Shown here: positions 40,166-61,490 of the stretch, piece after piece
Layout of the letters: every line of letters begins with the position of its first letter
How positions within the stretch are numbered: position 1 is the first letter of the stretch
IMG/VR virus record: IMGVR_UViG_3300028797_000103
Location: 87,685-151,684 of that record
Length of the DNA stretch: 64,000 nucleotides
Source of the DNA: a virus
Taxonomy: Duplodnaviria; Heunggongvirae; Uroviricota; Caudoviricetes
Strand: one strand, 5' to 3'
Notes under the pieces: generated by a model
Told to the model about the DNA's origin: nothing
Seen by the model: the letters and a program-made list of their open reading frames with translations, nothing else
Databases searched by the model: none
Translations under genes and position numbers: made by a program

Positions 40166-40238
40166 GATCCTGTGAGACATTTGGTAGTCTGGCCGTCCCT
40201 AAAACGGTTTTATGCGGGTTCGATTCCTGTCAGGATCA
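40166..40238 (+). tRNA. putative amber-suppressor tRNA, anticodon CTA (C33 atypical)
   Basis: GATCCTG TG AGAC-ATTTGGTA-GTCT G GCCGT-CCCTAAA-ACGGT TTTAT GCGGG-TTCGATT-CCTGT CAGGATC A. Confidence 0.45.
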
Positions 40239-40245
40239 CAATAAA

Positions 40246-42347: not shown

Positions 42348-42692
42348 ATCCCTAGTGTACCCAGAGCTAGCGTGGACGTGGCTAGGTCGGATGCGATCAT
42401 CAAGTCGCAGACGAAAGAAACCCCATTGATGTAATGGCAGCATACCTGACGCGAATTCAGGAAGTTCGAGTTCGAATCTCGATGGTTTGGGTTCAAAAAA
42501 AAAAACAACGGAACCTTGCTGGTGCGAAAACTTCCGAAAATTCGGCTCTAACCACCAGAAAAAACCGTGAGGACCAAGGGGCACCAACCAGGAAGGCTGC
42601 ATCTTAGTTGTACATACGATGTAGTTGACGTGCTGGGAGAAGTAGATCCATAGGAGCGGAGAAACGTTGTTTTTTAGAAATTTGCGGCGTGG

Positions 42693-42756
42693 AGCAGAGG
42701 TCAGCTTGCCGGTCTCATAAGCCGGAGGTCGTAGGTTCGAATCCTACCGCACGCAA
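42693..42756 (+). tRNA. tRNA-Met(CAT), initiator-like body
   Basis: The sequence TGCGGCG TG GAGC AGAGGTCA GCTT G CCGGT-CTCATAA-GCCGG AGGTC GTAGG-TTCGAAT-CCTAC is closely collinear with E. coli tRNA-fMet. The 3' acceptor strand CGC(A)CGCA carries a one-nucleotide bulge. Confidence 0.6.
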
Positions 42757-48682: not shown

Positions 48683-49224
48683 CAAATAAAATACAAATTT
48701 AATTTTCATGAAAACAAGAGAAATTGATGAATAATAATTTGGGGACGATATAGAATTTGACTCAAGTTGTCGAACATAATAAGCACGTCGTGCGCCGGTC
48801 ATTTAGCACGTTAATCTCGATGATCAAGAAATAGCTGACAACAGCAACTACAGACTCGCTGCTTAATCAACCGTGTTGGTTAACTTAATTCATCGGAGCC
48901 AAGGCAGCTTCGGAACGAGTGCTTCAGCAGAAGTTTTCTGTCTTCGGTATATTCTGCAACACGAAGCATCATCATTAACCGGAGAGCAGCATCGAAACCC
49001 TTCGTATCGATGTTCGCTAAATCGAAGGAAGGCTGTTCAGGTTTTGTTTCTCTTTTTCTGCCAGCAAATTATAAGAGAAAATAAACGTGTAGAAAGTTGT
49101 GTAAGAGATTTGAACACGGCGGGGCGGTTCCGCCCGTCTCCACAAATTTTGGTTCGTTTTGTCACTTTTGTTAAGTTTTTTGAAAATTTTTGCAAAAATA
49201 CTTTTTTATTTCAAATAAATACAG

Positions 49225-58828: not shown

Positions 58829-60353
58829 AAATTACAAGTCTTACATGATAATCAATACAGAAATAAAGGATCTGACAAAAAACGGAATGCCGGTGCTGGA
58901 CAGTTATGGTCGTTGCAAACGGTTTCTTTTAATTTCATATGTTGATAAAAACGGAACCATTAAAAAATTCGTCTGGGTGATACCTGAGGAATTTATGTAT
59001 CAGTGGAAATATGCAACAAGAAACGACGTTCCGGATCCTGTATACAAGTCTTGGGATTTTAAAAACGTTGTTAAGGAACCAATAGTTGGAAACTTTTCAG
59101 AGCAGCGTGTACATGAAATGATGCTTGATTTGGTTGCATCAAATCCAGATAATCCTGAACTGAAAGAAATGTTCGAGCTGAACATACCAGAAACGACATA
59201 TGCTGATATTGAGGTAGATGTTGGAGAAGACGGGTTCCCGCTAGCGGAAGAAGCAGCTAACACTGTAAACACTTGTTCATTCGTAAGGGGAAACGATGCT
59301 TGGTGCGTTGGTCTTGCGCAGTTGACAAACGATGACATCGAGTGGATTCAGAAAGAAATTGACAAGCACGTTTCCAAACTTGGAGTAAAATATAATTTCC
59401 ATTATAGATATCATGAAAATGAGCTCAGTCTGTTGAATGATATTTTCCAGAATTTCATAGGTACATCAGAGTGTGTTACTGGGTGGAACTGGTTTGGATA
59501 TGACTGGATATATTTGACAAACAGATCAAATCTTTATGGAATGGATATAAGTTATCTATCGCCAACAAAGTCATTTACAACTTACAGACCGATGGATGCA
59601 AAAGGAAAAGATGATAACATCAGGGTTCCTATGCACAGGGGGATGTACGATTATCTAGAAATTTACAGGAAGTGGGACAAGAGAATAACTCCAAAGATTA
59701 GCAACAAGCTTGACTGGGTAGCAGAGACTGTGCTTGGAATCAAGAAGGTAGCCCATCAGCTCGGATTCCGTGACATGTGGAGACAGCAGAAAAAGGAATA
59801 TGTTTTCTATAATGTAATCGATAGCATTCTTGTGCGGGAGATTGATAAGAAACTGAAGACATCATCAACATTTTTCGGTCTCGCAAACATCATGCACACT
59901 CCGGCTTTGACCGCATTCAGTTCTACGAAGAGTATCGAAATTGTTCAGTCTGAATATCTTTACAGAGAAAAAAGAATATTCCCGAAGGCGAAACAGAACA
60001 ATAACGTTCAGGAGTATGAGGGCGCATTTGTGTATGAACCCATTCCGGGTGTTTATATTCAGGTTTGGACTGTTGACTACGCGTCTCTTTATCCTACAAC
60101 TATGAGGCAATTTAATATGTCTCCTGACACATTTATAAAGAAAGACAAGAATCATAGGAGACAGCCAGATGAGATAGTTTGTGTCAACGGTTCTGTTTAT
60201 ACTAAAAAATTCCGTGGATTCATTCCAAAAATATTGGATGACTTCTACGCTAAGAGAAAGTCGTATAAAAAGAAGATGATTGAGGCTGAAGAAACCAAGT
60301 ACGAATTGCAGGAAATATTAAAAAGCAGAAAAGAAAAAGCAACAGTCGCATAA
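58821..60353 (+). CDS. family-B DNA polymerase, N-terminal fragment (3'-5' exonuclease region through polymerase motif A); gene is split/truncated
   Basis: Exo-I-like YADIEVD and motif A VDYASLYPTTM. The ORF stops ~100 aa after motif A, and motifs B and C are absent. The listed start 58821 probably over-extends, since the promoter box lies at 58816-58828. Confidence 0.55.
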   Translation: MQKNYKSYMIINTEIKDLTKNGMPVLDSYGRCKRFLLISYVDKNGTIKKFVWVIPEEFMYQWKYATRNDVPDPVYKSWDFKNVVKEPIVGNFSEQRVHEMMLDLVASNPDNPELKEMFELNIPETTYADIEVDVGEDGFPLAEEAANTVNTCSFVRGNDAWCVGLAQLTNDDIEWIQKEIDKHVSKLGVKYNFHYRYHENELSLLNDIFQNFIGTSECVTGWNWFGYDWIYLTNRSNLYGMDISYLSPTKSFTTYRPMDAKGKDDNIRVPMHRGMYDYLEIYRKWDKRITPKISNKLDWVAETVLGIKKVAHQLGFRDMWRQQKKEYVFYNVIDSILVREIDKKLKTSSTFFGLANIMHTPALTAFSSTKSIEIVQSEYLYREKRIFPKAKQNNNVQEYEGAFVYEPIPGVYIQVWTVDYASLYPTTMRQFNMSPDTFIKKDKNHRRQPDEIVCVNGSVYTKKFRGFIPKILDDFYAKRKSYKKKMIEAEETKYELQEILKSRKEKATVA

Positions 60354-60563
60354 ATAGTTAAAACAAAAACTATTTAAAATGGCGATCAAGCAGCAGGCAG
60401 TTCGTGCATTCATTGCAACTCCAAGAAAAAAGAGACCCGGTGTTATATCAAAGAAGCGCACATCAAAGATAAAAACATCGAAACACTACGTCAAGGCGTA
60501 TAGGGGTCAGGGAAGATAATTAAAAATTTTTCCGGTTTTATTTGGATTTTAAAAAAAATCGTC

Positions 60564-60583: not shown

Positions 60584-60657
60584 GGAGGGTGTAGCTCAGT
60601 TGGAAGAGCGCTAGATTGTGGCTCTAGAGGTCACGGGTTCGAACCCCGTCTCTCTCC
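60584..60657 (+). tRNA. tRNA-His(GTG) with encoded G-1
   Basis: G-1 GAGGGTG TA GCTC AGTTGGAA GAGC G CTAGA-TTGTGGC-TCTAG AGGTC ACGGG-TTCGAAC-CCCGT CTCTCTC C. G-1 pairs with C73. Confidence 0.7.
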
Positions 60658-60688
60658 CTTAGATAAAATATAGTTCATTGAAAAGTTT

Positions 60689-61398
60689 GCGCTCGTGGCG
60701 GAATGGTAGACGCAAGGGACTTAAATAAATTGAGTGCATACCGCAGGACGCTTAATGCGTGATAGATAAGATAAACAACCCAATTGGGAAGTAGCCTGTG
60801 GACGCTGGGAAACCAGTTATGTAGAACCTCCCTAAGTCGGCGAAACCTTAGCTAGTTAATGTTCAAAGAAGCGTTGAAGTAGTTGTGAAACATTGGAAGT
60901 ATAGTACCAATGGGCTGAATTCTACGGAGTGGAGAAGATTAACTTTGGTGGCAACGCCGAGCAATGTGATGGTGGTTGTAGACGGGAGCTTGTCAAAAAG
61001 GCAGGCGTAATGGTGAATTAACACTCGGAAAGAGCCGTGACCATTTAAGCAGTGTGTAGAGATCATCGAAACATTATGGAGTAGAGTAAGCCAGATATGA
61101 GTAAGTGCAGAGCTTAACGTCTGGTTGAAACAGGAGGAACCTAAGTTGAAATTATTGTATGAATGTTCCCAGTGAACCCGGAACCGAATAAACAGGCTGT
61201 GCAACTCAGCAAACCTCTTCATACAGTACCTTGCAAGATTTCAATATGGTTAAGACATGATCCAGACCACGAACAGACGTGCAGCCATAATAGTCGGGGC
61301 AGTTAAACCGAATTAGCGTGTCTGGCAGCGAAAGTTGTAGTGGTACGAAAATCCCTCGACCCGAAAGGGTCGTGTGGGTTCGACTCCCACCGGGCGCA
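60689..61398 (+). tRNA. tRNA-Leu(TAA) interrupted in the anticodon loop by a ~625-nt group-I-type intron (exons 60689-60722 and 61348-61398)
   Basis: 5' exon GCGCTCG TG GCGGAATGGTAGACGC A AGGGA CTT. 3' exon AAAA TCCCT CGACCC-GAAA-GGGTCG T GTGGG-TTCGACT-CCCAC CGGGCGC A. The intron begins AAATAAATTGAG, like the cyanobacterial tRNA-Leu intron, and ends in G. Confidence 0.7.
60723..61347 (+). other. putative group I self-splicing intron inserted between U34 and A35 of tRNA-Leu(UAA)
   Basis: The insert sits at the canonical tRNA-Leu(UAA) position with a U before the 5' splice site and a terminal G. No convincing internal ORF is present on the sense strand. Confidence 0.55.
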
Positions 61399-61402
61399 CA
61401 AT

Positions 61403-61486
61403 GCAGATGTGGCGGAATGGTAGACGCAGCAGACTCAAAATCTGCCGGGCGATGAGCCCGTGGGGGTTCGACTCCCCCCATCTGCA
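61403..61486 (+). tRNA. tRNA-Leu(CAA)
   Basis: GCAGATG TG GCGGAATGGTAGACGC A GCAGA-CTCAAAA-TCTGC with a long variable arm, then GGGGG-TTCGACT-CCCCC CATCTGC A. Confidence 0.75.
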
Positions 61487-61490
61487 CATT

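Follow-up and report, generated by a model that had tools for sequence, protein, structure and literature searches.

How a phage transfer RNA (tRNA) gene comes to be interrupted in the middle of its anticodon, and what kind of element could occupy such a site at a length of 625 nucleotides (nt), are the questions raised by a tRNA-Leu(UAA) locus in the viral record IMGVR_UViG_3300028797_000103 (Caudoviricetes). The window analysed here is a stretch of 64,000 nt of that record (positions 87,685 to 151,684), and all coordinates below are given on its plus strand unless otherwise noted. The reading favoured here, at a probability of about 0.85, takes the insert for an IC3 group I intron that is homologous to the classical tRNA-Leu(UAA) intron of bacteria and plastids and would be removed by the standard splicing pathway.

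The split gene and its insert

The 5′ exon (60689-60722) comprises the 5′ strand of the acceptor stem, the D arm, the 5′ strand of the anticodon stem and residues C32, U33 and U34, and ends in ...AGGGACUU. The insert (60723-61347; 625 nt) starts with AAAUAAAUUGAG, ends in ...GUGGUACG with a G as its last base, and is followed by the 3′ exon (61348-61398), which starts with AAAAUCCCU and supplies A35, A36, A37 and A38, the 3′ strand of the anticodon stem, the long variable arm, the T arm, the 3′ strand of the acceptor stem and the discriminator A. When the exons are joined in silico, ARAGORN recognises them as tRNA-Leu(taa), 85 nt in length, with a canonical cloverleaf and a long variable arm. 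Only standard pairs occur in its stems, among them the acceptor stem (7 bp, of which one is G.U), the anticodon stem (AGGGA/UCCCU) and the D stem, and the variable arm reads CGACCC-GAAA-GGGUCG. The splice junction, CUU/AAAA (here and below the slash marks the exon boundary), lies between U34 and A35 of this type II tRNA, and its position is defined by the colinearity of the joined exons with uninterrupted phage tRNA-Leu(UAA) genes that have an identical anticodon arm, of which at least 120 occur on viral contigs. An initial annotation, made from the sequence alone, had proposed a tRNA-Leu(UAA) split at U34/A35 by an insert of roughly 625 nt ending in G, with the same anticodon stem and variable arm; this description proved exact to the base, and the pairing of both arms was confirmed.

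The gene escapes standard detection. Neither ARAGORN with default settings nor the Rfam tRNA model finds it, while ARAGORN with the intron option recovers it at 60689-61399 with shifted boundaries and miscalls it as Ser(aga), the same sort of boundary ambiguity that was reported in a 2026 survey of bacterial tRNA introns (PMC13011429). It is flanked by tRNA-His (60585-60658) and tRNA-Leu(CAA) (61403-61487), and no second Leu(UAA) gene is present among the 31 ARAGORN tRNA calls in the window.

Short blocks common to the insert and IC3 introns, seen by eye, provided the first lead to its identity, and in an alignment with 18 published introns all core blocks of the insert fell in register. For a family-specific search, reference IC3 introns were taken from IMG/VR and from PMC13011429, whose supplement tabulates bona fide IC3 tRNA introns of bacteria and supplied the key lead, and the phage sequence was left out of every model. 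A profile hidden Markov model of 27 non-redundant bona fide IC3 tRNA-Leu introns, run with nhmmer against 1.46 Mb (the window plus 85 loci), matched the window only at 61228-61354 (E = 3.7e-9) and 60803-60860 (E = 2.8e-5). Similarly, two covariance models, one for each intron half, yielded a single window match apiece, at 61198-61354 for R1 (36.9 bits, E = 2e-7) and at 60717-60889 for R2 (29.2 bits, E = 6e-5). In the alignments of these two models 96.6% and 94.0% of cells pair, versus 19.6-48.5% with slid partners, and covariation exceeded that of all 500 shuffles. All of these matches fall on the insert, on the correct strand and in the correct order, those of the covariance models starting in the 5′ exon flank and ending in the 3′ exon flank. 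A profile was needed: with the insert alone as query, nhmmer gave no match at E≤1e-3 among 120 loci that bear IC3 introns. BLAST of the insert against GenBank phages returned tRNA matches only, and among exact-pattern scans GGGACTTAAATAAATTGAG and GCGAAAGYTGTAGTKGGTACGAAAATCC each gave 0 matches, while TCGGCGAAACC...CAACGCCGA gave 14, all of them chance occurrences in GC-rich coding DNA.

The fold agrees with this assignment from P1 to P9. In a core alignment of 38 sequences, from which insert columns were deleted, the phage intron forms 40 of the 44 consensus core pairs of P2-P9, including the P3/P7 pseudoknot (slid controls form 9-19), and every helix proposed in window coordinates consists of standard pairs. 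Eleven core pairs differ on both sides from the short-family consensus with pairing kept, and in P7 a C-G has become U-A and a U-A has become C-G at two pairs that are invariant in the other 37 sequences. P1 joins 60720-60724 with 60730-60734, the exon CUU and the intron AA pairing with UUGAG; within CUUAA/UUGAG, the 5′ splice site is marked by the wobble U60722.G60732, and the internal guide GAG occupies 60732-60734. Among relatives the guide tracks the exon, with GAG accompanying CUU exons and GUG accompanying CAU exons. P3 pairs CCUCC (60827-60831) with GGAGG (61133-61137) through five standard pairs, of which one is a compensatory change with respect to the short family, and forms the pseudoknot with P7. 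P4 (60837-60842 with 60955-60960), P5 (60846-60847 with 60950-60951) and P6 (CA/UG, 60962-60963 with 61053-61054, in a P6 domain of 60962-61054) are likewise formed by standard pairs, and J4/5 (AAA, between P4 and P5) and J8/7 are intact.

In P7 the 5′ strand GAGAUCAU (61059-61066) contributes 61059 and 61061-61066 to seven standard pairs with AUGAUCC (61257-61263), a 3′ strand that lies in the R1 match, and A61060 is bulged. G61059-C61263, the bulged A61060 and G61061-C61262 occupy the same columns as the invariant G-C, bulge and G-C of the family, and G61061-C61262, in a column that holds G-C in 38 of 38 sequences, is expected to be the guanosine-binding pair. Two alternatives for P7 chosen by eye, GCUUAAC/GUUAAG-C and GUCUGG/CCAGAC, were dropped because GAGAUCAU/AUGAUCC fits the family register and the bulged A, and a GUGCAGAG string at 61106 sits within the P7.1-like hairpin described below. 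P8 (AACC/GGUU, 61138-61141 with 61248-61251, in a P8 domain of 61138-61251) bears the receptor motif CCUAAG...UAUGG. Within the P9 domain (61266-61347), the R1 alignment gives an outer helix (61266-61270 with 61340-61344) and an expanded P9a (61275-61282 with 61316-61323); P9b (61325-61338) is capped by a GAAA (L9b, 61330-61333), and G61347 aligns with the invariant terminal G of the family. IC3 traits include the L2 GAAA at 60809-60812, the 11-nt-type receptor AACCUAAG...UAUGGUU in P8 and the GAAA-capped P9. Where a receptor for the L9 tetraloop would be expected, the greatly extended P5 reads CCUUAGC...UUGGUGG in place of the canonical CCUAAG/UAUGG. The group I type that the initial annotation had put forward is therefore borne out by the family-specific matches, the P1-P9 scheme with its compensatory changes, the U.G wobble and the terminal G, and both P1 and P7, the elements it had singled out for pairing analysis, are formed.

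Peripheral expansions and relatives

The family alignment splits the extra sequence, ~385 nt in all, over six sites: P2, P5, P6, the stretch between P7 and P3′, P8 and P9a. The length of the intron thus appears to come from six peripheral RNA expansions, none of them protein-coding, and these most likely act as a folding scaffold. The expanded P2 domain (60735-60823) is predicted to be a three-way junction that includes the GAAA-capped P2 hairpin of the family (60804-60817), its self-closing fold having a z-score of -3.3. The P4-P5 region (60837-60960) contains a P5 extension of ~90 nt with P5a at 60854-60860 and 60938-60944, and P6a (60968-60973 with 61040-61045) bears an extension of ~65 nt (z = -2.0 for the P6 segment). 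The insertion between P7 and P3′ (61067-61132) contains a P7.1-like hairpin at 61089-61126 (z = -1.5), the P8 extension (~100 nt) lies within 61138-61251 (z = -2.1), and the expansion of the P9 domain lies within 61266-61347 (z = -2.0). Every expanded segment, folded in isolation, closed on the helix that the model predicts; the z-scores are modest (-0.55 to -3.3). On the 3′ side of the P8 extension, a palindromic CUUGCAAG (61229-61236) is predicted to form an unpaired bulge and is invariant in 11 aligned members of the long subfamily described below; no pairing partner for it was identified in these aligned introns.

To place the intron among its relatives, IMG/VR, whose contigs are predicted rather than proven phages, was scanned for the canonical P7...P7′ motif, which was found at ≥120 loci, with 121 matches listed. 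Among the matches listed, 66 of 121 are tRNA-Leu(UAA) genes according to ARAGORN, and the 63 with unambiguous boundaries have introns of either 191-263 nt (53 cases) or 688-713 nt (10 cases). Short IC3 introns are a common feature of tRNA-Leu(UAA) genes on viral contigs. Nine of the ten listed introns of 688-713 nt (L099, L125, L143, L147, L150, L167, L181, L186 and L195) contain open reading frames (ORFs) for HNH proteins of 144-189 amino acids (aa), in sense or antisense orientation, while L136 (707 nt) has no ORF of ≥60 aa. A cultured representative is the 490-kb jumbo phage Atu_ph07 of Agrobacterium, whose tRNA-Leu(UAA) gene (MF403008 112890-113251, equivalent to L362 594-955) is split by an unannotated IC3 intron of 278 nt (profile E = 3.3e-43), with a 'hypothetical protein' coding sequence annotated over part of the intron.

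Long relatives without endonuclease-sized ORFs were recovered by a scan for IC3 introns with an enlarged P9. They have an exact 26-mer on the 3′ side of P8 in common with the phage intron, and the 24-mer TTGCAAGATTTCAATATGGTTAAG taken from it occurs at 30 IMG/VR loci, most of them on contigs with lengths of 74-364 kb, and two copies are present on several contigs. A search of 185,579 genomes of prokaryotic species found this 24-mer once, at the end of a short contig (L241, 2.8 kb) in a Lachnospiraceae bin (rumen metagenome-assembled genome RUG11200), which is likely a mis-binned phage fragment. The hallmark of the subfamily is found in no GenBank phage record, and BLAST with the subfamily core gave generic IC3 matches only. 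With boundaries set by ARAGORN and the U(-1)/terminal-G rule, the long introns measure 339-663 nt and, on large phage contigs, interrupt at least five different tRNA species, namely Leu(UAA) at 34/35 and 33/34, Arg(UCU), Lys(UUU), Ser(UGA), and CAU-anticodon tRNAs at 36/37. Members such as L209, L210, L213, L229, L231, L235, L236 and L240, among others, have the blocks GUAGAACCUCCCUAA, ACAGGAGGAACCUAAGUUGAAAU and CUUGCAAGAUUUCAAUAUGGUUAAGA in common with the phage intron and, like it, are expanded in P5, P6, P8 and P9a, but overall identity is just 40-61%, and the P4 and P7 sequences of the phage intron are its own. Within the subfamily, the P7/P3′ insertion is common only to the phage intron and L231, the P5 extension is near-identical to that of L213, and the P8 extension is ~90% identical to that of L235 over 147 nt. 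From these features the phage intron can be assigned to a long IC3 subfamily without an evident endonuclease gene, which is found almost only on phage contigs.

Two members of the subfamily are unusual at their boundaries. In L235 (reverse strand, IMG/VR 3300028048_000103) the intron lies between a tRNA-Ser-like 5′ half and a tRNA-Lys-like 3′ half, which looks like the product of recombination between intron copies in different tRNA genes. L230 has an A in place of the terminal G (GTGGTACA/AAAATCCCC), and this copy may be inactive or its boundary may be shifted.

Among known introns, the tRNA-Leu intron of Nostoc/Anabaena PCC 7120 (249 nt, IC3, type Leu.3Ug) occupies the same gene and the same site (CUU/...g/AAAA), lacks an ORF and has the same P1 (CUU with GAG and an A-rich loop), core blocks and helix order. 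The resemblance to the classic cyanobacterial and plastid intron that the initial annotation had seen in the first bases of the insert holds, as the P1 loop of Nostoc likewise starts AAAUAA. In contrast to the Nostoc intron, the phage intron is 2.5 times longer, with expansions in P2, P5, P6, P7/P3′, P8 and P9a, has a different P7 sequence with compensation, is undetected by the Rfam group I model RF00028 and is phage-borne. The Azoarcus tRNA-Ile(CAU) IC3 intron, for which structures have been solved, is 205 nt long, interrupts another tRNA at site 36/37 and is unexpanded. Its type of architecture, taken as a lead and then confirmed via the family alignment, shares with the phage intron the L2 GAAA, the 11-nt-type P8 receptor, the GAAA-capped P9 and a P7 of the form G-A(bulge)-G-A-N-N-N with N-N-N-U-C-C. 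Cyanobacterial tRNA-Arg(CCU) IC3 introns have an insertion or a LAGLIDADG gene between P7 and P3′, right after the P7 5′ strand and so in the same place as the phage insertion, but they are bacterial, lie in another tRNA at site 36/37 and have that single insertion.

At its 3′ end the insert closely resembles the tRNA-Leu(UAA) introns of Bacteroidota and Acidobacteriota at site 34/35 (IC3, 211-259 nt; PMC13011429 supplement), where UCCAGACCACGAAC ... GCAGCGAAAGyUGUAGUkGGUACG/AAAAUCC is nearly identical to UCCAGACCACGAAC ... GCAGCGAAAGnUGUAGUnGGUACG/AAAAUCC of the phage insert. These introns also have J2/3 GUAGAAC and the P4/J4-5 block in common with the phage intron but, unlike it, are compact. 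A survey of 4,934 complete bacterial genomes found an endonuclease gene in every tRNA intron >500 bp (PMC13011429), whereas the phage intron, at 2.5-3 times the usual size, has none. For phages, a 2014 review placed all introns then known in protein genes (PMC3984707). Introns in the tRNA genes of Lak megaphages have since been described as 'enigmatic' and left unclassified, Rfam having given the authors no answer (Devoto et al. 2019, PMC6784885), and the tRNA introns of jumbo phages were tallied, but assigned to no class, in a survey of 2026 (PMC13037316). Those introns also reside in very large phages, as here, and the DNA polymerase (PolB) of the present phage is closest to that of Lak. BLAST with the phage intron and with the subfamily core gave no Lak match, and a tRNA nested within the intron, as suggested for Lak phages, was found by neither ARAGORN nor Rfam.

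Splicing and competing explanations

If the intron is active, the pre-tRNA would be transcribed together with the neighbouring tRNA-His and tRNA-Leu(CAA), and the intron would fold into its P3-P9 core. The guide GAG would pair with the exon CUU and thereby present the U34.G wobble at the cleavage site, and free guanosine, bound at the P7 G-C pair beside the bulged A, would attack after U34. The terminal G (61347) would then take the same site, and the 3′-OH of U34 would attack after the terminal G, ligating the exons into a functional 85-nt tRNA-Leu(UAA).

Several observations weigh against this account. The Rfam group I model RF00028, which the initial annotation had named as a check, gives no match at its gathering score, nor at E≤10 on a 1.1 kb stretch. 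This is taken as a limit of the model rather than as absence of the intron, because RF00028 detects only some members of the family: it scores the short relative L086 at 56.9 bits (gathering score 50) but misses L088, Atu_ph07 and the long relatives L209, L210 and L229 (three of the three long ones tested). The failure on the phage intron is likely due to its six large insertions. Each covariance model aligns correctly only part of its half of the intron, because the insertions exceed what the models allow. Four consensus pairs are unformed (the two basal pairs of P2, the final pair of P3 and the initial pair of P4), the P5 extension is no stabler than shuffled sequence (z = -0.55), and the 66-nt P7/P3′ insertion, together with expansions in nearly all arms, could slow or block folding. 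In addition, two metagenome scans returned no close relative of the whole intron for covariation tests on the expansions. Splicing itself is inferred from conservation, as are catalytic activity and independence from protein cofactors.

Alternatively, splicing here could require a phage or host protein, with the expansions serving as protein-binding platforms rather than as RNA scaffolds. Many large group I introns do need cofactors, for example CYT-18 (reviewed in PMC3984707), and the P8 extension contains the invariant, unpaired CUUGCAAG for which no RNA partner was identified. Such a dependence is nevertheless considered unlikely, as no maturase-like ORF is present in or beside the intron and the elements that let compact IC3 introns self-fold are kept (the L2 GAAA, the CCUAAG/UAUGG receptor in P8 and the L9b GAAA).

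The insert could also be a true IC3 intron by descent that has lost splicing, leaving a dead tRNA gene and UUA/UUG decoding to a host tRNA or to the phage Leu(CAA). The six large expansions, above all that between P7 and P3′, and the loss of four consensus pairs are compatible with decay, the A in place of the terminal G in L230 implies that inactive copies may exist, and the exons of L235 are chimeric. However, continued selection on the fold is suggested by the doubly compensated P7 and by ten further changes that affect both sides of a pair and keep it paired; the U.G wobble, terminal G, bulged A, J4/5 and J8/7 are all intact, the exons are without defects, and the gene is the sole Leu(UAA) gene in the array by ARAGORN calls. 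A dead intron is accordingly regarded as quite improbable.

A decayed homing-endonuclease gene as the source of the unusual length, remnants of which the initial annotation had proposed to search for, would be in keeping with the HNH genes of the 688-713-nt viral tRNA-Leu introns, nine of ten among the matches listed, and with the endonuclease genes in all >500-bp tRNA introns of complete bacterial genomes (PMC13011429). The extra sequence of the phage intron is, however, distributed over six separate sites bounded by conserved core blocks rather than gathered in one loop, and each segment folds back as a helix extension. No sense-strand ORF is present in the insert in genetic codes 11, 15 or 4 (reading TAG or TGA as sense), as the initial annotation had noted for an endonuclease gene. 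The antisense ORF of 119 aa that it also listed is present, matches no Pfam or PHROG family and was on that ground rejected as a gene. A tblastn search of the 625-nt insert with seven HNH proteins from related introns gave nothing better than E = 0.26. An endonuclease remnant as the origin of the extra length is therefore rejected as very improbable.

A reading outside group I, in which the insert would be a group II intron, an insertion sequence or miniature inverted-repeat transposable element, a protein-spliced tRNA intron or the gap between two unrelated tRNA fragments, has the missing RF00028 match in its favour and is effectively refuted by the unique, ordered, same-strand IC3-model matches that begin and end at the exon junctions and by the 40 of 44 core pairs, and it is further opposed by the site at 34/35 with U at -1 and a terminal G, by exons colinear with intact homologues, by the lack of a match to any other Rfam family, group II families included, at E≤10 on the 1.1 kb stretch, by a start of AAAUAA rather than the 5′ GUGYG of group II introns and, with regard to bulge-helix-bulge introns (the motif being judged by inspection), by a site that is not 37/38, a length of 625 nt and flanks that form P1 and P9.

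Beyond the identity of this single IC3 intron, the long endonuclease-less introns may constitute a lineage specific to large phages, in which the conserved peripheral domains do more than scaffold the ribozyme; this broader proposal is tentative and rather unlikely. The clearest candidate for an additional role is the P8 extension with its invariant unpaired CUUGCAAG. Such domains could gate or time the maturation of phage tRNA during infection, could keep the anticodon loop split, and so hidden from host anticodon nucleases, until splicing, or could let the introns move from one tRNA gene to another by endonuclease-independent recombination or reverse splicing. This last possibility is hinted at by the chimeric Ser/Lys exons of L235 and by the modular sharing of the P8 extension.

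Host phage and implications

Sequence identical to the window forms part of an ENA contig of 328,867 bp. Its large ORFs match PHROG families, and its T4-type PolB fragment is closest, among GenBank phages, to that of Lak megaphages (36% identity). The host is a huge phage related to Lak megaphages and not, as initially annotated, a crAss-like phage. Among 71 IMG/VR loci with PolB relatives the intron was found in none, and the closest of them (61-66% identity) have no tRNA-Leu locus. The PolB ORF (58845-60353, 502 aa) spans only residues 22-145 of the 453-position Pfam polymerase domain, ending after motif A. The remainder of the domain does not occur within the 6.9 kb that follow, so the polymerase is either split or truncated just before the tRNA cluster. 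Between this fragment and tRNA-His lies a highly basic ORF of 46 aa (60379-60519; MAIKQQAVRAFIATPRKKRPGVISKKRTSKIKTSKHYVKAYRGQGR) with no Pfam or PHROG match.

The split gene is part of a translation cluster (34642-61487) of 31 ARAGORN tRNA genes, one further tRNA found by Rfam only (42684-42755) and a tmRNA (48741-49145). The cluster contains a suppressor-type tRNA with a CUA anticodon (40166-40239), and when TAG is read as sense the ORFs become only modestly longer. Downstream of the tRNA-Leu pair, past the 3′ end of the window (L206 10628-12815), are genes for an EcoRI-like methylase, an RNase H-like protein, a 5′-nucleotidase, a UvrD helicase and an RNA ligase of the T4 Rnl1 type, a family that repairs cleaved anticodon loops of tRNAs. 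Two Logan contigs of the same phage (L207 and L208) begin inside tRNA-Leu(CAA), at window position 61419, where the assembly probably broke because the 5′ halves of the adjacent tRNA-Leu genes are nearly identical.

Within the reach of the literature search, the setting of this intron, a phage tRNA, and its form, long and without an endonuclease, are new, while its kind is known: Leu.3Ug of IC3 is the longest-known type of bacterial intron. The long-standing view had been that group I introns are absent from phage tRNA genes, yet tRNA-Leu(UAA) genes of viral contigs commonly have the classical IC3 intron, which is also present, unannotated, in the cultured phage Atu_ph07, and large phages carry a bigger, endonuclease-less form that is missed by RF00028 and by default tRNA finders. 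As these large introns escape such tools, the tRNA complements of big phages are under-counted, as here, where the sole Leu(UAA) gene was missed, and spurious ORFs are annotated over ribozymes. Why introns that lack an endonuclease are maintained, and why they spread to several tRNA species, is a further question that the long subfamily poses. With up to ~400 nt of peripheral RNA added to a natural IC3 core, the subfamily also offers a series in which the effects of peripheral domains on folding and catalysis may be studied.

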